In this document: positions 22,959 through 31,784 of the stretch, one piece after another | How positions within the stretch are numbered: position 1 is the first letter of the stretch | Layout: each line of letters opens with the position of its first letter | From: an uncultured Prevotellaceae bacterium | Lineage (GTDB): Bacteria > Bacteroidota > Bacteroidia > Bacteroidales > Bacteroidaceae | Assembly: GCA_902785945.1 (NCBI GenBank) | Contig: CADAAR010000002.1 | Location: 71,743 to 135,742 of the forward strand | DNA: 64,000 bases | Direction: 5' to 3' | Position numbers and translations under genes: made by a program | The notes under the pieces: generated by a model | Databases searched by the model: none | What the model was told of the DNA's origin: nothing | Seen by the model: the letters and a program-made list of their open reading frames with translations, nothing else

Positions 22959-23837
22959 TTATAGTGTGTTTTTCTTTATTTCGTCGAGTAACTGATCGCG
23001 GAGTTTGCTGGGACGAAGGCGGGAGGCAGCAGTACGGCAACGCTGTAAGGTAGATTCATTGACAGAGCTTAAGACACGCTCTGCTAATAGCAGTGCTAAG
23101 GAGAGTTGAGCTTCGGTGGATGGAATATAGCCTTTACGAGGCAGGAGGCTTTGGTAGAGGCCTTGTATCTCACGATACAGGAGATCCCATTCGTGACGTG
23201 AGGACTCCTTATCTGGTGGGGAGATCAGCATTGTTGTGGAGAGGTGGATGAGTTCTTTGGCATCGCCAAGGATATCGTGACTGGCAGGGCGCTGTTGCGA
23301 GACTACTTCTACAACATCAGGCTTTACGCTGACAGCAGCAACAGCCAGGTCGGGAATGCTGACAACGAGTTGTTTTTCACGCTTTCCCTTCACTTTCACT
23401 AAAACGCCCTCAACACCATCGAATGCACCACCATGGATTCGAATGCGGTCACCTTTTTCCAAGCTGAGCTCGTCTGGACGGAAATACGTCACCGCTCGTT
23501 CTGTCTGCTCTGTGATACGAATGAAGTTTTCCATATCACGGTCGCTGACAACAACTTTTTCACGACGGTTTTTACCCAACACAGGGCGCGTGAGCCAATA
23601 GCATGTCTCACAGAGTTTCATCTTAGCCTCACTGATTTGGTCTTCAGTGCCATAGATAAAGACCAATTCAGTAATGGCTGGCACCAATCGGCGTAACTTA
23701 TGACCTTGCTGCGCCTCCACTTGATAGCGCATAGGCACATAACAACGTAAACCACGACGACGCAAGGCATCACGCACAGCAAGCTCTCTTTTAAAGATGG
23801 CTCGCAGGACGTACCAGTGGATACTATTTGTGTCCAT
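22959..23837 (-). CDS. upxY: UpxY (NusG-family) antiterminator with C-terminal UpxZ-like domain
   Basis: NGN (WYVLR, YVPM, LVFI) and KOW (GDRIRIHGGAFDGVEG); residues ~188-292 contain KGYIPSTEAQLSLALLL and LQRC...LRPSKLRDQLL, resembling UpxZ. Confidence 0.88.
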   Translation of the reverse strand: MDTNSIHWYVLRAIFKRELAVRDALRRRGLRCYVPMRYQVEAQQGHKLRRLVPAITELVFIYGTEDQISEAKMKLCETCYWLTRPVLGKNRREKVVVSDRDMENFIRITEQTERAVTYFRPDELSLEKGDRIRIHGGAFDGVEGVLVKVKGKREKQLVVSIPDLAVAAVSVKPDVVEVVSQQRPASHDILGDAKELIHLSTTMLISPPDKESSRHEWDLLYREIQGLYQSLLPRKGYIPSTEAQLSLALLLAERVLSSVNESTLQRCRTAASRLRPSKLRDQLLDEIKKNTL

Positions 23838-23908: not shown

Positions 23909-26900
23909 TTAGGGAGCTACTACACAGAGGATCTTATCTGTAGCAGTCGGCGAAGCAACCTGAGTAGTACGATACTTATTGACTGTAGCTACAGCCTTAT
24001 CAGCAGCTTTAGTTGCAGCAACAACATTAACGGTAACAAACCAAGTAGTTCCAGCCTTCTCTTCACTGATAGGCAGCGTAGGATGAGTGTAATAACCACT
24101 GTAACCTACCAGACTCTGATTCAGCGTAATTGCATGATAACTGTTGTCAAGAGTTGTAGTTACAAACGTAGCCTTAGCCTTTTCATCGAGTGTACGAGCC
24201 GCTTCTGTGTACTCATTCAAGTTAATGATAACGTTACAAGCCTCTGTAGCAGAAGTTGTTTCAATTCCACCAACAAACTGTCCAATCTTAGCATAGTTGA
24301 TACCATAGTTTGAACTTGACTTCTGCTCAGTAATAGCAACAGCCGATCCATTGCAAGTACCTGTAATATAACTCTTAACAGGTGTACCCGCATCATCAGT
24401 TTTTTGACCGAATGTAAGTTTAGCCGTTTTTGCTACCAGACCTACAATACCACCGAGATTACCATAAGCCTTGATGGTACCTGCAGTTTTAATATTTGTA
24501 AGAGTTGTAAGGTTGGTAGTATTTGTAACCTTACCTAACAATCCACCAACAGAGATAACATTATCAGATGTAGTGGGCTGAACATCCAGACCCTTCACCT
24601 CGATATTATTGATAACAGCATCAGCACCTGTAGCATCCATTTCACCAGCGAGAGCACCAATAATCTCATCTGCAGCAACAGCACCAGAAACCTTCACATT
24701 GTCAAAAACAACATTTGCAATGGCCTCATTAGCAATCTTGCTGAAGAATCCACGATATACGACTGTTCCAACTGTAGTAGCCTTCAACTTCAGATCCTTA
24801 ATAGTTGCAGGGAGAACGTTGGCAGCAGCAAAAGCTTTTGAATCTGTTGGATAAATACGATAGTCACCATTCAAATCGTGAGCAGTCTTAGCTTCCCAAT
24901 CACGATCCTCATTCATGCTAATCTCGCTAGCGAGAATGCGTACAGCACCAGCAGCATTCTTCAACTGGTGAGCAGTTACGGCAGCAGCAGTGATAGCAGT
25001 AGAAGTAGCATCTCCTGTTGAAGCACCAGTGATTGTGGCCAGAGGAGCCATAATAGATCCTGTTTTAGGAAGTTTAGAAGTAAACTTCACCTTCAAGCAG
25101 TTTGCAGCAAAGTCCTTTGTGGCAGCTGTAGTACCAACAGTAGCCCACTGACTAAAGTCAACAGCTTCAATCTGAACATTTTCAGTGTAAATATTACAAC
25201 CAGCAGCGTTTCCACTATAAGTTGCTGACAAATGTGTTTCATCTGCTGCAAACTTAACATTTCCGACCTTACCACTCTTAATATTAACACCCTGACAAGC
25301 GTCCAGTACATACAACTGTTGAGTTGTAGTTGTAGTCACAGCTCTATCAATAACCATCTTACCAGATGTAACGATACTACCGGTTCCCTTAGCAGTCAAG
25401 TGATCATTAGACTTGTTGATCAAAACAGGAATTTCACCATCAAGAATAAGGTCTGTAGCCATTTCTTCGTCAACCAGCACATTAACTTTTTTGGTGGTTC
25501 CCGGAACCTGAGCAATATTCAATGTCAGTTTCTTACCACCAATCTTATGAATCTTCAAAACCTGATTAACATCAACACCTTCAACTGTAGCATTAATTGT
25601 GACATTATGCTTCAACTCATAAGCCTCAGTAATAACATCATCAAACAATCCATAATTGGGAATTGTATTAGAGAAGTCAATCCACTGCTTCTGAGGAGCA
25701 TCATCACTGTTGTTTACCTGAATAGTCTTATTAAAGCTAAGTGTGAAATCACGAGTTGCTTCCTTGTCAGCAGCAATAATAGCCTGAACCATCTGGAATG
25801 GAGAAGTAGCATCGTCATTAATGCGACGGCTGTCATCTACGATACTATAGGTCTGGCCACGATATACGCTCTTGGCAACAGGAGTAGTCACACTATGTCC
25901 CACCTCTGCACCACCACCAGCAGCAGTAAAGTCGATAGTTGTCACAGCATCAGCATTAGAAACATCACCACTCAACATTACTTTGAATAGATGATCAATC
26001 TTCGTAGAAGCAGTCGCACCTGCAGAGATAGGAATATAAACAACGATATCGCCACCAGCACGGCCAATGTTAACCAGAATCTGGTTGTTACAGGTTGCAA
26101 CACCTGTCTTAGGAATTGCATCATAAGTACCTGTATAAGCAACAACATCAGGAGCCACGAGAACAGGGGCCTGAGCCTTCAGACCTGTTGTAGCATTGTC
26201 GGGATCAGCAATAGTAGCTTCGAATGTACCTGTCAGTGCTTTGTTAGATTCAATCAACAACCACTTGCTACTACCTTCTGCTGCAGCAGGAACCTTTGCA
26301 ATATCAAGACGCAGGAAAGCGGTAAGATACTTCAAGGTCATCTTTTGATTAGCAGCAACACCCCACATAGGAACAGGGAATGTATTACTGCTACACTCGA
26401 TACCATTCTTGTAAGCATTACCAGCCTCAAGATTAGAAGGCTGTGCTACGTTTACAGAGAACACTTTCAGAGCATCGAAGTCAAACTCCATAGTCGTACG
26501 ATCCTCATCCATGAACTTACCGAATTTTGTTGCTACGCCTGCTTTCTGGAACTCTGCAGGATAGATACCATAACCTGATTCGTACTCATCTCCAGGAGTT
26601 GGAGCCTGGAAAATGGCAGCATCGCCACCTGCAGCACCATCAGCATTCGTATAATGTACAGATGTCGTACCAGAATAAGTCCAATTCTGTGGACGCCAGT
26701 TGTTGGCATCGTCATAAATCTTAAGTACATCACCAGGGTTGAAGACTGTAACTCTCTTAAGTTTGCCGTCGACCTCAGCCTCAACGAAGCCTGCACGTGT
26801 AGCATCGCCATTAAGATTTTCTACAGTTACGAGCAACTCATTTGACTTAAGGGCAACATTATCTTTGCCAGTCATAAGGTCATCGCTTTCAGAGCAACTA

Positions 26901-26950
26901 GCAAATGCAAAAACTGCTAAAGCTACCGGAAATAGTTTCATTAATTTCAT
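23909..26950 (-). CDS. Large surface lipoprotein, fimbrillin / type V pilin-like N-terminus, GLUG-like repeats at the C-terminus
   Basis: Lipobox FASC followed by acidic SESDD; propeptide ending ATRAG; YGIYPA and PMWG motifs; GGLLG and GGIVG repeats. Confidence 0.65.
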   Translation of the reverse strand: MKLMKLFPVALAVFAFASCSESDDLMTGKDNVALKSNELLVTVENLNGDATRAGFVEAEVDGKLKRVTVFNPGDVLKIYDDANNWRPQNWTYSGTTSVHYTNADGAAGGDAAIFQAPTPGDEYESGYGIYPAEFQKAGVATKFGKFMDEDRTTMEFDFDALKVFSVNVAQPSNLEAGNAYKNGIECSSNTFPVPMWGVAANQKMTLKYLTAFLRLDIAKVPAAAEGSSKWLLIESNKALTGTFEATIADPDNATTGLKAQAPVLVAPDVVAYTGTYDAIPKTGVATCNNQILVNIGRAGGDIVVYIPISAGATASTKIDHLFKVMLSGDVSNADAVTTIDFTAAGGGAEVGHSVTTPVAKSVYRGQTYSIVDDSRRINDDATSPFQMVQAIIAADKEATRDFTLSFNKTIQVNNSDDAPQKQWIDFSNTIPNYGLFDDVITEAYELKHNVTINATVEGVDVNQVLKIHKIGGKKLTLNIAQVPGTTKKVNVLVDEEMATDLILDGEIPVLINKSNDHLTAKGTGSIVTSGKMVIDRAVTTTTTQQLYVLDACQGVNIKSGKVGNVKFAADETHLSATYSGNAAGCNIYTENVQIEAVDFSQWATVGTTAATKDFAANCLKVKFTSKLPKTGSIMAPLATITGASTGDATSTAITAAAVTAHQLKNAAGAVRILASEISMNEDRDWEAKTAHDLNGDYRIYPTDSKAFAAANVLPATIKDLKLKATTVGTVVYRGFFSKIANEAIANVVFDNVKVSGAVAADEIIGALAGEMDATGADAVINNIEVKGLDVQPTTSDNVISVGGLLGKVTNTTNLTTLTNIKTAGTIKAYGNLGGIVGLVAKTAKLTFGQKTDDAGTPVKSYITGTCNGSAVAITEQKSSSNYGINYAKIGQFVGGIETTSATEACNVIINLNEYTEAARTLDEKAKATFVTTTLDNSYHAITLNQSLVGYSGYYTHPTLPISEEKAGTTWFVTVNVVAATKAADKAVATVNKYRTTQVASPTATDKILCVVAP

Positions 26951-26992
26951 AATGCTTGTTTTAAAAGTTAAATAATAAATACATTTTAGAGA

Positions 26993-27133
26993 TTACTGGT
27001 TTAGGTCGATAATCTCCTCGTCCTTTACGTCTTCTTCGGCTGAGCCGGGACTAGTGCAAAGGAATTCCTCCAACTCAGTCTCGATAATCTCCTGAGCGGG
27101 AGCTACATACCATTTTAATTCTTTCTTGTCCAT
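26993..27133 (-). CDS. 46-aa peptide MDKKELKWYVAPAQEIIETELEEFLCTSPGSAEEDVKDEEIIDLNQ; candidate RRE-dependent precursor (absent from ORF track)
   Basis: Manual translation; AT-rich region before ATG; promoter ~65 bp upstream; YxxP motif; adjacent PqqD/peptidase/kinase cassette. Confidence 0.8.
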   Translation of the reverse strand: MDKKELKWYVAPAQEIIETELEEFLCTSPGSAEEDVKDEEIIDLNQ

Positions 27134-27198
27134 AATTTAAAAGTTTTAATAAAATTAATAAATATGTTAATTATCACATTTTTACATAAAATCCGCCG

Positions 27199-27231
27199 CA
27201 AATTTAAGGTAAATATTTGAAACATGCAAGT
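27199..27231 (-). promoter_or_regulatory. Promoter for the peptide and lipoprotein genes
   Basis: TAAATTTG (-7) at 27206-27199 with a TTGC -33-like element upstream. Confidence 0.65.
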
Positions 27232-27492
27232 TTTTCGCTATTTTTTTTATAAAAAACCTCGAAAAAATGCCCATTTTACTACTATTTCCTCAATTTTTCG
27301 CTTCGGAAGCTATAAATTTATTTAAGAGTCATGTCTCAGCATTTGTCCCTTTCAGGACTGCCATAGACAGCATAACAAGGGCGCATGGCTGCTCCCCTAT
27401 ACACGTACCTTATATATAATATATTAAGGCGGATCCTCAAATTTTGGTTCACACATACTCGGTTTATTTGGATTATATGCTTAAAATCGATG

Positions 27493-27525
27493 CAAATATA
27501 AGGATATTTGCTGGAAACTGCAAAT
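27493..27525 (-). promoter_or_regulatory. Second, upstream promoter (long leader)
   Basis: TATATTTG at 27500-27493 and TTTG about 20 bp upstream. Confidence 0.55.
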
Positions 27526-27599
27526 ATTTCACGTGTTTTTTTGTTAAATTGGGTAAAAATGTCTCTTTTCGTCAATAAAGCAAGGACAAAATCTAAGCT

Positions 27600-29246
27600 T
27601 TATAACGAAATCTTTTCATCACAGAGCTCGCAGACGAGCTGGCGGTGGGTGATGAAGATCATGGTTTTTTGGGGATAAGCCTCGAACAGACGGCGGTAGA
27701 GTTCGCGCTCGGTCTGCTCGTCGAGCGAGGCGCTAATCTCGTCAAGAAGCAGGATGCCGCCAGGGCGGAGGAGGCCGCGGGCGATGGCGATGCGCTGGGC
27801 CTGGCCCTCGCTGAGGCCGGCGCCACGTTCGCCACATTCGGTGTCGATGCCCTCTGGGAGCTGGAACACGAAGTCGGCCATGGCGGTATGGAGAACCTGG
27901 TGGAGTTCCTGGTCGGTGGCATCGGGCTTGGCCAACTGGAGGTTGTAGCGGATGGTGCCACTCATGAGAGTGTTACCCTGGGGCACAAAGACAAAGTTGG
28001 AGCGCGTCTTCTCGCTGATATATTCCTTGCCACGGCGACCATAGATGGTCAGGGTGCCCTCGTTGGGCTTGATGAGGGCCAGCAGCAGACGGAAAAGGGT
28101 GGTCTTACCGGCACCTGTGATGCCCATCAGGGCCGTCTTACTGCCAGGATGGAAGTTGTAACTGAAATGGGAGAGAATCTCGCGATCGCCATCGGCATAT
28201 TGGAAAGTGACGTTCTGGACACTGACGCCAAGCGGGGAGGAAGCGCTTGAAGGGCTTAAGGAGCTGGAGGATTCTGAGGGGGACTCTTCTTCGGCCTCTA
28301 TTCGTTCAAGTTCCTCAAGACGGTCGATGCTGGCGGAGGCATGGATGGCCTGGGGCAGCATGTTGAGCATCTGGAGGATGGGCTGCTGAATCTGGGAAAC
28401 CAGCTGGAGGAAGGAGGTCATCACACCAAAGGTAATGGCGCCAGTGCGCAGCTGCATGGCGCCCCAGATGAAGGCAATGATATAACCGAAGCTGAAGCTG
28501 GAGGCAATGAGCAGACGCGAGACCACCGTGAAACGGGCACGACGGTTGATCTTGCCCTTCAGATCCTGCTGCATATCGTCGAGACGGCCCGTCACCCAGT
28601 CGCCACTCTCCAAGGAACGCAACACGGCATTGTGCTCCATGGTCTCCTGCACCAGCATCTGGATGATACTCTCCTGACGGCGGATATCGAGCGTCATCTT
28701 CCGCATCTGACGGGCAAAGAGCTTGCCGACCACGAGGAAGATGGGCGTGAGCAACAGCAGGGCCCAGGCCAGACGGGCGTCCATCATGTTCATGAACAGG
28801 AAAGCACCTAGGAGCTGAACAAGGGTGACAGTGATGTCGGGCACTAGGGAGGTGGTGGCATCGCTCACCACGTCGATGTCCTTCTCCAGACGCGAGGTGA
28901 CATCGCCAGAGTGCAACTCCTTCTGCTCGAACATCTGACGACGGAACAGATGACTGAAGATGCGCAGGCGGATGGACGTGCTCTGGAAAGCACTGGCCTT
29001 GACGCCAAAGTAATAATAGACCTGTCGACAGATGATGCCGCCACTGATGGTGGCCACCAAAGCAGCTATCATCAGCAGGATATCGTCGGAGCTACCTGTC
29101 CGGATGGTGACGTCGATGAACTGTTTGCAGAGCCACACCATCAGCAGTCCGAACGCCACGCGTCCGATGCCCGCCACGATGCGCACCAGCATATTCCACC
29201 GGATGCCCCGCGTGTTCTGCCAGAGCCAGACCAGGTATTTCGTCAT
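27600..29246 (-). CDS. ABC exporter (fused permease and ATPase, no C39 peptidase domain)
   Basis: TM domain, GITGAGKT, LSEGQAQR, LLLDE. Confidence 0.92.
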   Translation of the reverse strand: MTKYLVWLWQNTRGIRWNMLVRIVAGIGRVAFGLLMVWLCKQFIDVTIRTGSSDDILLMIAALVATISGGIICRQVYYYFGVKASAFQSTSIRLRIFSHLFRRQMFEQKELHSGDVTSRLEKDIDVVSDATTSLVPDITVTLVQLLGAFLFMNMMDARLAWALLLLTPIFLVVGKLFARQMRKMTLDIRRQESIIQMLVQETMEHNAVLRSLESGDWVTGRLDDMQQDLKGKINRRARFTVVSRLLIASSFSFGYIIAFIWGAMQLRTGAITFGVMTSFLQLVSQIQQPILQMLNMLPQAIHASASIDRLEELERIEAEEESPSESSSSLSPSSASSPLGVSVQNVTFQYADGDREILSHFSYNFHPGSKTALMGITGAGKTTLFRLLLALIKPNEGTLTIYGRRGKEYISEKTRSNFVFVPQGNTLMSGTIRYNLQLAKPDATDQELHQVLHTAMADFVFQLPEGIDTECGERGAGLSEGQAQRIAIARGLLRPGGILLLDEISASLDEQTERELYRRLFEAYPQKTMIFITHRQLVCELCDEKISL

Positions 29247-29247
29247 C

Positions 29248-29517
29248 TTAGAGAATCAGTCCGATCTCTTTCCAATTAGCGACAATCTTCTTAATGTCAC
29301 TCAAGGCCTGCGACTTCTCCACATCGTACTCCTTGCAGATGGCGTCGGCCAACTGCTCTTCGGTGAAGTCGCCCAGTTCTGCAGCCTTCTCCCAGAGCCA
29401 GGCTGCGGTATCGTTCAGGCTGATGAGCTTACCGAAATTCACGGTCTCGAGACCTTCGCCTACAATCACTTTCTCGCCGCACACCTCGCGCAGCACAAAT
29501 CCTTTTTTCTGTTTCAT
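29248..29517 (-). CDS. PqqD-family protein (RiPP recognition element)
   Basis: FVLREVCGE, ISLNDTAAWLWE, LADAICKEYDV...ALSDI; 89 aa stand-alone. Confidence 0.88.
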   Translation of the reverse strand: MKQKKGFVLREVCGEKVIVGEGLETVNFGKLISLNDTAAWLWEKAAELGDFTEEQLADAICKEYDVEKSQALSDIKKIVANWKEIGLIL

Positions 29518-29518
29518 C

Positions 29519-29989
29519 TTATATATGTATATTCAGTTTCAATAATGACCTACGGTAGATGGCCAGAATCCAACGCCTGACAGGCAGCAGCCTGCTCCAG
29601 AAACGGGAGAAGCGAAGCCTTTGGGGGGTATAAAGATACCGCCGCTTGCCATTCGGGGCAATGACATACTCCGCACGCGCCTTCACATCGCTGAGCGGGC
29701 AGTACTCGTCGGCAGTGATGTTGCCATCGCCCATAAGCTGGACCTGGTCGTCGTTGATACGGATGATACGGTGGACCACAAAGCGACAACCATTGATCCA
29801 CGCCAGCACCACATCGCCCACAGCCACGGTCTCAGGCTTGACAAGCTCTACACTCTCCCGACCGCCAATGATAAACGGCAGCATGCTATTGCCCTTTACA
29901 GGCAACACCACCCGCTGGCCTTCATTCACCAGTTGAATGAGATCGCGTAAAATCTCATTATTGGGCAGGACTTTATGTACAACTTCCAT
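29519..29989 (-). CDS. S24/S26-family peptidase, soluble, Ser/His type
   Basis: KGNSMLPFI, GDVVL, VVHRI, MGDGN; no N-terminal TM segment. Confidence 0.85.
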   Translation of the reverse strand: MEVVHKVLPNNEILRDLIQLVNEGQRVVLPVKGNSMLPFIIGGRESVELVKPETVAVGDVVLAWINGCRFVVHRIIRINDDQVQLMGDGNITADEYCPLSDVKARAEYVIAPNGKRRYLYTPQRLRFSRFWSRLLPVRRWILAIYRRSLLKLNIHI

Positions 29990-30011
29990 GACTGATTCTT
30001 AATTTCGGCTG

Positions 30012-30122
30012 CAAAGGTACGAAAAAAAGTGAAGAGTGAAGAGTGAAGAGTGAAAAATTTGCTTCCGCTTGAATGATTTTCAATTTTCAATTTTCAATTT
30101 TCAATAAAAATAACTACCTTTG
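30012..30122. promoter_or_regulatory. Divergent promoter pair for the peptidase-PqqD-ABC operon and the kinase gene
   Basis: TACCTTTG on minus (30019-30012) and on plus (30115-30122). Confidence 0.65.
30028..30080 (+). repeat. (GAAGAGT)n plus AATTTGCTTCCGC unit, copy 1
   Basis: Direct repeat of 31001-31056; related inverted copies at 56397-56474 and 56921-56964. Confidence 0.85.
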
Positions 30123-30143
30123 CACACAAATTTGAAAAATGAG

Positions 30144-31022
30144 ATGAAAGAATATTATTATAAGGTGGCGGAGCATGTGTTTTCGCTGGATATGGGAACA
30201 AAAGGCGATCTGGTCTGTGACTTGCGACAATACGAGGGGTTCGTGACAGATCCGACGGAAGACGTGGTGTTTAGCATGCAGATTGTGGATATGCCTTTCT
30301 CAACGGAAGGTTTCAACGATGAGATGCACCAGGAAGAAGAGGGGCAGGAGATCATTGCCGGCCATCTGCCAACAGGTGAGCCTTACTTTGAATTTCTGCT
30401 GAAAGGCAAGCGTTCTGCTGTGCTCATCAGCAGTCAGGACTACCGACAGGCCCGTCTCAGTCTGGAGGAATATCCGCAGTTTGGCGTGAACAACGCCCTG
30501 ATGGTGATGTATGCCCTGGCCACTGCCAACAAACGGACAGCCATGTTCCACTCGTCGGTGGTGAGCTATCAAGGAAAGGGGTATATGTTCCTCGGCCAGA
30601 GTGGCACCGGCAAGAGTACACACTCCAGCCTGTGGCTGAAACATATTGAGGGCACAGAATTGGTGAATGATGACAATCCTGTAGTCAGAGTCTTAGAGAA
30701 TAACGAGGTGCGGGTATACGGCTCTCCATGGAGTGGAAAGACGCCTTGCTATCGGAATGTGAGCTATCCTGTAGGGGCCATCGTCAAACTGAGTCAGGCA
30801 CCTTTTAATAAGATCGAACGTCTGAAGGGTATCAAGGCCTATGCGGCTGTGGTGCCTTCCATCTCGGGTAAGCGCTGGGACAAGGAATTGGCCGAAGGTC
30901 TGCATGAGACAGAGAACCTGATTGCCCAGCATGCTAGCGTCTGGCATTTAGACTGTCTGCCCGACGAGGCCGCCGCGCAGCTCTGCTGTAAGACAGTTGA
31001 AAGAGTGAAGAGTGAAGAGTGA
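30144..31022 (+). CDS. HPr kinase / PEPCK-like P-loop kinase
   Basis: FHSSVV, LGQSGTGKSTHS, LVNDD, GSPWSGK; ATG 30144 lies just after the promoter. Confidence 0.8.
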   Translation: MKEYYYKVAEHVFSLDMGTKGDLVCDLRQYEGFVTDPTEDVVFSMQIVDMPFSTEGFNDEMHQEEEGQEIIAGHLPTGEPYFEFLLKGKRSAVLISSQDYRQARLSLEEYPQFGVNNALMVMYALATANKRTAMFHSSVVSYQGKGYMFLGQSGTGKSTHSSLWLKHIEGTELVNDDNPVVRVLENNEVRVYGSPWSGKTPCYRNVSYPVGAIVKLSQAPFNKIERLKGIKAYAAVVPSISGKRWDKELAEGLHETENLIAQHASVWHLDCLPDEAAAQLCCKTVERVKSEE

Positions 31023-31056
31023 AGAGTGAAGAATTTGCTTCCGCTTGAAGATTTTT
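31001..31056 (+). repeat. (GAAGAGT)n plus AATTTGCTTCCGC unit, copy 2 (supplies the kinase stop codon)
   Basis: Direct repeat of 30028-30080. Confidence 0.85.
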
Positions 31057-31124
31057 GCACAGTAGGGACTTTGTAACAAAGGGATGTAACGACACATTAT
31101 TTATTTATCAACTAATTATTATTT

Positions 31125-31784
31125 ATGAAGAAATTGTTAATCCTCATGCTGATGATGGCTACCACAGTGGTGTCATCGGCGCAGACAAAGAAAGTGTCGG
31201 TCTTGGGCGACTCGTATTCCACATTCAAGGGCGTGGGCCCTGCTCATTACGCACCGTTCTATCCCAACGACCGTAACGATTGCAAGGCCGTAGAGCAGAC
31301 TTGGTGGGACCTTTATATCAAGGCCAAGGGCTATGTGCTGGAGAAGAACGATTCCTGGGGCGGCACCACCATCTGCGGCACAGGCTACGGTCGTATGGAT
31401 GCCTCGCGCAACAATTTCATTTCGCGTGTCGACAGTCTGGGTAATCCCGATATCATCTTCGTGTTTGGCGGCACCAACGATGCTTGGGCCAACGTTCCCA
31501 TAGGCGAATATCAGTATGCCGACTGGACGAAGGATGACTGCAAGAACTTCCGTCCTGCGCTGGCCTGCCTGCTCGACATGCTGCAGAAGCGTTATCCCAA
31601 GGCCAAGCTCTGCTCCATCCTCAATTCGGAGTTGCGAGAGCCCATCAACGAGTCGATGCGCGAGGTGTGCAAGCACTACAACGTCCAGCTCGTAGAGTTG
31701 CATGATATTGAGAAACAGAACGGTCACCCGTCGGTCAAGGGCATGAAGAGCATCTGCGACCAACTTCTGGAAGCAGGACTGTAG
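31125..31784 (+). CDS. Secreted SGNH/GDSL hydrolase
   Basis: Signal peptide, GDSYS, GGTND, GHP. Confidence 0.88.
   Translation: MKKLLILMLMMATTVVSSAQTKKVSVLGDSYSTFKGVGPAHYAPFYPNDRNDCKAVEQTWWDLYIKAKGYVLEKNDSWGGTTICGTGYGRMDASRNNFISRVDSLGNPDIIFVFGGTNDAWANVPIGEYQYADWTKDDCKNFRPALACLLDMLQKRYPKAKLCSILNSELREPINESMREVCKHYNVQLVELHDIEKQNGHPSVKGMKSICDQLLEAGL

Follow-up and report, generated by a model that had tools for sequence, protein, structure and literature searches.

A DNA stretch of 64,000 nt from an uncultured Prevotellaceae bacterium (GenBank assembly GCA_902785945.1, contig CADAAR010000002.1, positions 71,743 to 135,742), called the window below, carries beside a capsule locus a 46-codon open reading frame (ORF) together with genes for an HPrK-like kinase, an S26-type peptidase, a stand-alone PqqD-type protein and an ABC exporter. 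We consider it likely that this locus is a Bacteroidales pathway for linear phosphopeptides, akin to the linear polyphosphorylated peptides (LPPs), producing a peptide made ribosomally and modified after translation (RiPP) of the LPP-like kind, and that the 46-aa peptide is the substrate of the cassette. LPPs were described in May 2026 from Bacillota only, and our results indicate that Bacteroidales widely have a pathway equivalent to theirs. The system is present in abundant gut, oral and rumen bacteria, including the cultured Hoylesella marshii DSM 16973 (13 copies of the peptide).

Coordinates refer to the whole 64,000-nt stretch. The source genome assembly is 3.1 Mb and 88% complete, which applies to all searches of that genome, and it was placed in a large Bacteroidales genus whose sampled members include Hoylesella (formerly Prevotella) marshii DSM 16973. 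A first-pass annotation of the window had set the 46-aa ORF beside the four other genes, and all five were found in place. The features of the locus are as follows.

23909..26950, minus strand: lipoprotein of 1013 aa (lipobox, acidic residues after the Cys)
26993..27133, minus strand: precursor peptide of 46 aa (ORF, family alignments, codon pattern, relatives)
27199..27206, minus strand: TAAATTTG, a match to the TAnnTTTG promoter element, read from the sequence, 66 nt upstream of the peptide ATG
27600..29246, minus strand: MsbA-like ABC exporter of 548 aa (Pfam ABC_membrane and ABC_tran), counterpart of LppD
29248..29517, minus strand: stand-alone PqqD-type RiPP recognition element (RRE) of 89 aa (PF05402, E=1.1e-14), counterpart of LppB
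29519..29989, minus strand: S26-type serine peptidase without a transmembrane segment (TIGR02228, catalytic invariants, AF2 model), counterpart of LppS
30144..31022, plus strand: HPrK-like (ScmC-family) P-loop kinase, listed as an ORF from TTG 30120, counterpart of LppK

The order on the minus strand is peptidase, PqqD, ABC exporter, 46-codon ORF, lipoprotein, upxY and then the capsule locus, and the peptidase gene overlaps or abuts the PqqD gene. There are 466 nt between the stop of the exporter gene and the start of the 46-aa ORF, and 42 nt between the stop of this ORF and the gene for the 1013-aa lipoprotein. The HPrK-like gene is divergent from the peptidase-PqqD-ABC operon. Kinase, peptidase and PqqD genes had one copy each in the source genome.

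The 46-aa ORF is a real gene of a large unnamed family. A word-indexed database search revealed 15 homologues of 41-56 aa, in which about 28 N-terminal residues were near-identical while the acidic tails were unrelated. A HMMER profile search of 1.84 billion representatives gave 1,963 cluster representatives (50% identity) at E<=0.001, and the 150 listed among them were all 38-100 aa. Where the sources name family members, the name is "hypothetical protein", and neither the peptide nor 10 of its relatives matched a Pfam or NCBIfam family. It means that standard annotation misses what are probably the substrate genes of a near-core Prevotella enzyme module. The short-ORF pattern proposed in the first-pass annotation, used in an adapted version, matched the source genome 7 times with 5 true members, and the reversed genome twice. 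A chance ORF was ruled out by the codon pattern, the 1,963 relatives and the 7 family members in the source genome. Besides the window peptide, these members are:

C1:82116-82247, minus strand: family member, in tandem with the next
C1:81967-82104, minus strand: family member, in tandem with the previous
C2:266890-267039, plus strand: family member
C12:91068-91214, minus strand: family member
C20:16551-16709, plus strand: family member
C43:9151-9312, minus strand: family member

In the tandem pair, the second peptide has a basic and not an acidic tail.

In the 46-aa peptide, residues 1 to about 25/26 form the leader, which contains the invariant Y9 and P12; F24-L25-C26-x-S28 is conserved, and the tail (29-46) is acidic and variable. 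Across 44 aligned sequences Y9 and P12 were the sole invariant positions, and the N-terminus was conserved and the C-terminus variable. Of 52 members, 51 have a Ser at Y+18 to Y+20, most often at Y+19 or Y+20; ahead of it come two hydrophobic residues ([FLIM][LIM]), then Cys, Ala, Val or Leu, and then one variable residue. Across the family the tails have a median of 26.5 residues, with 32% Asp+Glu and 4% Lys+Arg. Many tails end in W, F or L and then acidic residues, and the peptides of L045, L047, L055, L059 and L072 form a subfamily with a conserved core (about TSVxPxxPG[ST][ST]EE[DE]W...GGEFE), further conserved Ser/Thr and an aromatic-acidic C-terminus. Such conserved cores and tail ends hint that the core holds a second motif for recognition or modification.

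Conservation at the protein level also bears on the idea that the ORF is a cis-acting leader, that is, a regulatory upstream ORF (uORF) or 5' RNA element, which controls the lipoprotein and capsule genes and yields no stable peptide. Its position fits this idea: the ORF precedes the lipoprotein gene by 42 nt, and upxY and the capsule operon come after that. In addition, 27081-27278, which includes the 5' region, is matched at >=90% identity by contigs of four rumen RNA libraries from three studies, which speaks for presence of the sequence only and not for transcription, strand or level. The RNA runs were used as rumen metatranscriptome contigs holding small shares of the sampled words, and uncovered parts mean nothing. 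Against this idea, the first 28 codons of the window peptide and of its relative in L017 differ by 8 synonymous and 4 non-synonymous changes, an Rfam scan of 26500-31500 at E<=1 gave no match, and about one third of the members lie downstream of their partner gene, where a uORF cannot act. In arrest peptides it is the C-terminus that is conserved, and here that end is the variable one. So a leader of this kind seems very improbable to us.

The closest known system is the LPP pathway, whose clusters lppA-K-B-S-D-N were reported from Paenibacillus alginolyticus DSM5050 and other Bacillota (Popov et al., Nat Commun 2026, PMC13381572). They encode an HprK-like kinase (LppK), an RRE (LppB), a SipW-like peptidase (LppS, with S29/H68/D93), an exporter (LppD) and an NTP-transferase (LppN), and the precursors carry YxxPxVLxHQxIxFETxxS with the phospho-Ser at Y+18 (PMC13381572). 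In a heterologous host LppK put up to four phosphates on core Ser3; LppS cut after Thr-1 and required LppB, and leader removal depended on the kinase (PMC13381572). The clusters are often in capsule loci, and the final product and its role are not known (PMC13381572). The first-pass annotation knew of no characterised product for such a locus, which is out of date given this pathway. The logic it proposed, in which the RRE binds YxxP, the S26 enzyme cuts near FL-C-T-S, the HPrK-like kinase phosphorylates a Ser and a linear acidic core leaves by export with no cyclase involved, matches the Paenibacillus experiments (PMC13381572).

The locus shares with LPP clusters a kinase, a discrete PqqD-type RRE, a TM-less S26 peptidase of the Ser-His-Asp type and an MsbA-like exporter, and no cyclase is present. 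It also shares an N-terminal leader with YxxP, a Ser about 18 residues past the Tyr, variable C-termini and, in the window, the proximity of a capsule locus; a PF14907-type nucleotidyltransferase is found in other Bacteroidales cassettes. The differences are as follows. The host is Bacteroidales instead of Bacillota, and by profile E-values the Bacteroidales RRE does not stand nearer to LppB than to the B1 proteins of lasso clusters. The leader has [hydrophobic][hydrophobic]-[C/A/V]-x-S where LPP has VLxHQxIxFETxxS, and the cores are strongly acidic. In the source genome, 7 dispersed precursors abutting surface-protein genes stand against one cassette; the triad of kinase, peptidase and RRE is near-core in the genus, where it mostly comes after rpoD, and the cassette in the window is without nucleotidyltransferase. 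Thus of the features that define LPP systems, the peptidase without anchor, the PqqD RRE, the intact kinase site, the MsbA-like ABC protein and the YxxP precursor are all found here, while membership of the LppB clade (by profile E-values), the full leader consensus and an LppN in the window cassette are absent. With the enzyme set and the YxxP/Ser features present, the system is best filed as a Bacteroidales variant working like LPP.

In that study LPPs were termed restricted to Bacillota in the discussion, Bacteroidota were never named in the main text, and the LppB clade was monophyletic in the tree (PMC13381572). Its Supplementary Data 1 lists RRE-linked SpI homologues outside the LPP cluster, with RREs as "others" and precursors as "ND" (PMC13381572). 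Among these, cluster 4 of the sequence similarity network (SSN) comprises Dehalobacter and Anaerocolumna, and cluster 8 comprises Paludibacter with a peptidase-ABC fusion; two Bacteroidales peptidase-ABC fusions are in the supplementary table and were left unanalysed (PMC13381572). The proteins of cluster 4 resemble those of the window, as judged by eye only. We found no description of the cassette in Bacteroidales in the literature, and the Bacteroidales RiPP survey PMC10352776 is silent on it.

The enzymes of the cassette look active, judged by their conserved catalytic residues. The HPrK-like protein gave weak matches to ScmC, HprK_rel and Hpr_kinase_C, all far below the curated cut-offs, and its relative in L013 carries Pfam PF27840 (ScmC). 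Among 30 homologues SGTGKST (161-167), NDD (183-185) and GxPWSGK (201-207) are invariant, and the protein aligns with the HPrK P-loop and LVxDD of 1ko7. The kinase matches point also to SynChlorMet (SCM) ScmC/HprK-related families (TIGR04249, TIGR04352, TIGR04355, PF27840), which occur beside PqqD-type proteins as well; SCM cassettes carry radical SAM/SPASM maturases, but the window cassette has none.

The peptidase matched best the archaeal-type signal peptidase I model of NCBIfam (TIGR02228, E=7.5e-8, below cut-off) and has no N-terminal hydrophobic anchor. In an alignment of 29 homologues S35 (GxSMxP), H73 (HR) and D88 (GDxN) are invariant and there is no invariant Lys. The AF2 model (pLDDT 89) has an N-terminal helix, an S24/S26 beta core and two C-terminal basic helices, and its fold matches LexA, UmuD and signal peptidases, including SipA (4n31). 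A search of the Protein Data Bank (PDB) with the single sequence gave no match and a profile search was needed, which gave SpsB (4.4e-5) and SEC11A/C (about 2e-4) against about 0.5 for LexA. Membrane-anchored enzymes of the SipW type (Bacillus subtilis SipW for TasA/TapA, Streptococcus pyogenes SipA for pili) share the archaeal/ER-type S26 fold, the Ser-His chemistry and the association with surface-structure and biofilm genes. They cut Sec signal peptides outside the cytoplasm, whereas the window peptidase lacks an N-terminal anchor and is tied to an RRE and a kinase of the cytoplasm.

The exporter is a half transporter with a transmembrane domain (TMD) and a nucleotide-binding domain (NBD), matching MsbA-related and type I secretion models of NCBIfam. 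It was described earlier as lacking a C39 domain, which is right: only ABC_membrane and ABC_tran were found, and there is no room for C39 because these two fill the 548 aa.

The PqqD protein is the only PF05402 match, and the only RRE found, in the source genome. Lasso-B1 models of NCBIfam match it best, below cut-off, and a profile of 27 Bacteroidales RREs matched TfuB1 (6jx3_B, 4.8e-6), PbaB1 (9x90_B, 0.0094) and LppB (9x8z_B, 0.081). The locus could therefore be taken for a degenerate or split lasso cluster with its cyclase and B2 protease elsewhere in the genome: among solved and curated proteins the RRE has its best relatives in lasso B1 proteins, YxxP is a lasso leader motif, and HPrK-like kinases decorate paeninodin-type lasso peptides (PMC7533575; PMC13381572). 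Phosphorylated lasso peptides (paeninodin, pseudomycoidin, Bsf) have a YxxP/WxxP leader bound by a discrete B1 RRE and an HprK-like kinase that phosphorylates Ser, and a nucleotidyltransferase and an ABC exporter are common among them. However, they require an Asn-synthetase-like macrolactam cyclase and a transglutaminase-like B2 cysteine protease, neither of which was found here. PF13471 (B2) had 0 matches in the source genome, on which ground a lasso cluster was rejected. The S26 peptidase takes the place of B2 in 30/30 cassettes, and a cyclase is adjacent in 0/30, the cyclase family not having been searched genome-wide. The cores are very variable and have no conserved Asp/Glu at 7-9 paired with Gly/Ala/Ser/Cys at 1. 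We regard a lasso cluster as the least probable of the alternatives. With an S26 serine peptidase for the cleavage, the product should be linear. The absence of B2 protease, cyclase and radical SAM enzyme noted in the first-pass annotation thus holds, for B2 in the genome and for cyclase and radical SAM in the neighbourhood.

Genomic linkage of the peptide with the cassette was found at several levels. The arrangement of the window is kept in the close metagenome relatives L013, L014 and L016, and the peptide lies beside or heads the cassette in four separate lineages. In the order, three of the five genomes with both peptide and kinase have the peptide <=11 kb from the kinase gene, for which we estimate a chance of about 3e-5 (>=3/5 such adjacencies). 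These adjacencies come from three other families of Bacteroidales. In L080 two peptides lie upstream of the kinase, and in L081 the peptide is 5.6 kb from the cassette. In L082 the peptide ends 39 nt upstream of the kinase on the same strand, followed by the peptidase, PqqD and a PF14907 nucleotidyltransferase, and a second peptide is 11 kb away.

Across genomes of the genus the peptidase was found in 121/151 (62/73 high-quality), and the peptide profile matched 49/151, with up to 13 copies. Among high-quality genomes the peptidase was in 26/26 that have the peptide, and the peptide in 0/11 without peptidase (Fisher p=0.005). In the order the kinase was in 5/8 peptide-positive genomes and 21/192 others (p=0.001). 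The co-occurrence of motif family and cassette, a check proposed with the first-pass annotation, thus came out positive in genus and order, with p-values that are overstated because related genomes are not independent.

A complex model of the RRE with residues 1-36 of the peptide had an ipSAE of 0.43 (best control 0.02), which supports binding weakly. The runs agreed in >=90% of contacts with a partner pLDDT of >=55. The mark for such models was reached by 58/80 solved complexes and 2/110 mismatched pairs; passing scores at <=0.60 came from only 7/80 solved complexes, yet from both mismatches that passed. Because RRE-leader complexes have already been solved, the pass may reflect nothing more than likeness.

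Several observations weigh against a pathway of this kind with the 46-aa peptide as its substrate. The complex prediction was only a weak pass, the RRE profile matches LppB (E=0.081) worse than TfuB1 of the lasso type (4.8e-6), the leader beyond YxxP and Ser is unlike the LPP consensus, and the nucleotidyltransferase is missing from the window cassette. Most precursor genes in the genus are far from the cassette, so that the adjacency seen in the window is the exception in the genus and not the rule, and most cassettes of the genus follow rpoD with no peptide or ABC gene near. The gene constantly found next to the peptide encodes a large surface protein, which could mean a function independent of the cassette. 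The peptide profile also matches only 49 of the 151 genomes though 121 hold the peptidase; either many precursors have diverged beyond detection, or there are other substrates of the triad.

The analysis shows the identities of the genes, their conserved catalytic residues, the peptide family with its motifs and the genomic linkage; by analogy with Paenibacillus lpp we infer the binding, phosphorylation, cleavage site, export and order of steps. The PqqD protein would use beta-strand addition to bind the invariant YxxP of the leader, as the RREs of lasso and LPP systems do. The HPrK-like kinase would phosphorylate, possibly several times, the near-invariant Ser just past the leader (S28), and the cytoplasmic S26-type peptidase, assisted by the RRE, would remove the leader somewhere in F24-L25-C26-T27-S28. 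The ABC half-transporter would then export an acidic core of about 18-21 residues. We put the chance of these specific steps, phosphorylation of S28, cleavage within FLCTS and ABC export, at roughly even. A single cassette would serve all 7 precursors of the source genome, and each precursor would be co-expressed with a large surface protein.

The pairing with surface-protein genes was seen among 40 additional members sampled from other genomes of the genus: 37 of them lie directly beside a gene that encodes a large secreted protein or lipoprotein. About 25 of the 40 lie 5-100 nt upstream of a lipoprotein or secreted-protein gene of 388-923 aa, and about 12 directly follow a large ORF, in some cases with stop and start codons that overlap. 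In the source genome three window-type members precede lipoproteins of 1013, 843 and 878 aa, and three of the six members outside the window sit shortly before lipoproteins or shortly after secreted proteins of 719-1201 aa. The partners vary widely and for the most part match no Pfam family; one group is fimbrillin-like (Mfa_like_1, E=1e-14). The 1013-aa lipoprotein matched no Pfam or NCBIfam family, and tblastn found no paralogue of it in the source genome; its N-terminus matched fimbrillin-like ESM Atlas clusters at 0.89, under the 0.9 line, which is a lead only. The partners at L056:1432-3435 and L063:1490-3229 have Sec-type and not lipoprotein signals. What they have in common is confined to a C-terminal domain of about 64 aa (48% identity), which may be a sorting domain, and one carries DUF6359 and the other Fn3_assoc/CHB_HEX_C_1.

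Core subfamilies of the peptide track the families of partner proteins, a pattern that duplicated two-gene units would give with or without any interaction of their products. It could be that the peptide is an accessory of the neighbouring surface protein (a chaperone, strand donor, or assembly or sorting factor) unrelated to the cassette, which would mature an undetected substrate; its place next to the cassette in the window would then be due to chance in gene order. This tracking, the 37 of 40 pairings, the distance of 6 of the 7 source-genome members from the cassette, and the triad beside rpoD without peptide gene in most genomes of the genus all agree with it. It leaves unexplained the invariant YxxP, a known RRE-binding motif, and the Ser at LPP spacing, and it has to face the four lineages with the peptide at the cassette, the co-occurrence in genomes and the PqqD protein as the sole RRE of the genome. 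It is also compatible with maturation by the cassette, as a matured phosphopeptide could still act on the lipoprotein. We hold an accessory role apart from the cassette to be unlikely.

Maturation of the peptide by the cassette remains our preferred reading, and the pairing adds to it a concrete, testable hypothesis of function that the Bacillota work could not offer. Tentatively, the matured phosphopeptides might be dedicated, co-evolving partners of individual surface proteins instead of free antibiotics or signals, with one housekeeping module maturing all of them. Each lipoprotein, fimbrillin-like or adhesin gene would bring its own precursor, often translationally coupled, and the acidic phosphorylated core would associate with, prime or decorate its cognate surface protein or the capsule. 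If true, it would be a new use of RiPP machinery, for accessory cell-surface subunits in dominant gut and rumen Bacteroidales. Of two roles suggested earlier, partnering a pilin-like protein seems to fit better than anchoring the glycan, because the constant neighbour of the peptide is a large surface-protein gene and not the capsule locus.

Cassettes vary across the genus and the order (30 examined in all, 20 of them genus loci). Among the genus loci, the clade of the window has kinase-peptidase-PqqD-ABC, and in the others rpoD is followed by a gene of about 150 aa and then by kinase-peptidase-PqqD without ABC; the kinase-peptidase-RRE triad is near-core in the genus. The ABC gene is also in cassettes of several other families and is absent from the rpoD-linked triads of the genus. 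In 5/5 tested cassettes of other Bacteroidales families a PF14907 nucleotidyltransferase follows directly after PqqD (E 1e-31 to 1e-39). Because all five tested intervening genes are PF14907, a complete LPP gene set occurs in Bacteroidales cassettes. The window cassette has no nucleotidyltransferase, and the sole PF14907 match of the source genome is unlinked to it, on a different contig. This match is a 248-aa ORF at C1:144213-144959 (PF14907 NTP_transf_5, 36 bits together with neighbours in frame), which is shorter than the cassette-linked versions of other Bacteroidales (about 340-375 aa) and may be a remnant or a detached LppN-like gene.

The rpoD-linked run was seen in L031-L037 and L039 (for example L033:7662-10731): a conserved rpoD-like sigma factor of 287 aa, a secreted protein or lipoprotein of about 140-200 aa, and kinase-peptidase-PqqD, with no ABC gene. 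The protein between the rpoD-like gene and the triad carries the motif FGFAASFNDSTVYFTDIQ.

TAnnTTTG is the promoter consensus of Bacteroides and Bacteroidetes, and the TAAATTTG match suggests that the peptide and lipoprotein genes have their own promoter, since it lies 66 nt upstream of the peptide ATG. A scan for sigma-70 promoters and terminators was set aside as unsuited to Bacteroidetes. The kinase probably starts at ATG 30144 and not at TTG 30120, because this TTG is inside a TAnnTTTG-like motif and the corresponding Met is where the homologues start.

The kinase gene is flanked by short tandem repeats (GTGAAGA units, then TTTTCAA units) at 30028-30110 and about 31005-31056. In four rumen RNA libraries the repeat bins had a depth of 170-1,700 with many loose ends, against mostly 0-15 and at most about 56 outside them; therefore the repeat element is common in many other organisms or loci. 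One contig of an RNA library joins 30056 to 31014 and skips the kinase gene. The kinase gene may be inverted here between the flanking repeats, because it is co-directional with the peptidase gene in relatives. The RNA libraries with near-identical sequence come from sheep and cattle gut, and in one of their contigs the leader region is joined to the start of the lipoprotein across a different core.

The UpxY-family antiterminator at 22959-23837 has 292 aa. The NF033644 model (164 positions) spans its residues 8-175 only, leaving a C-terminal extension of about 115 aa outside the match, and the gene sits after the lipoprotein gene and not at the head of the capsule operon.

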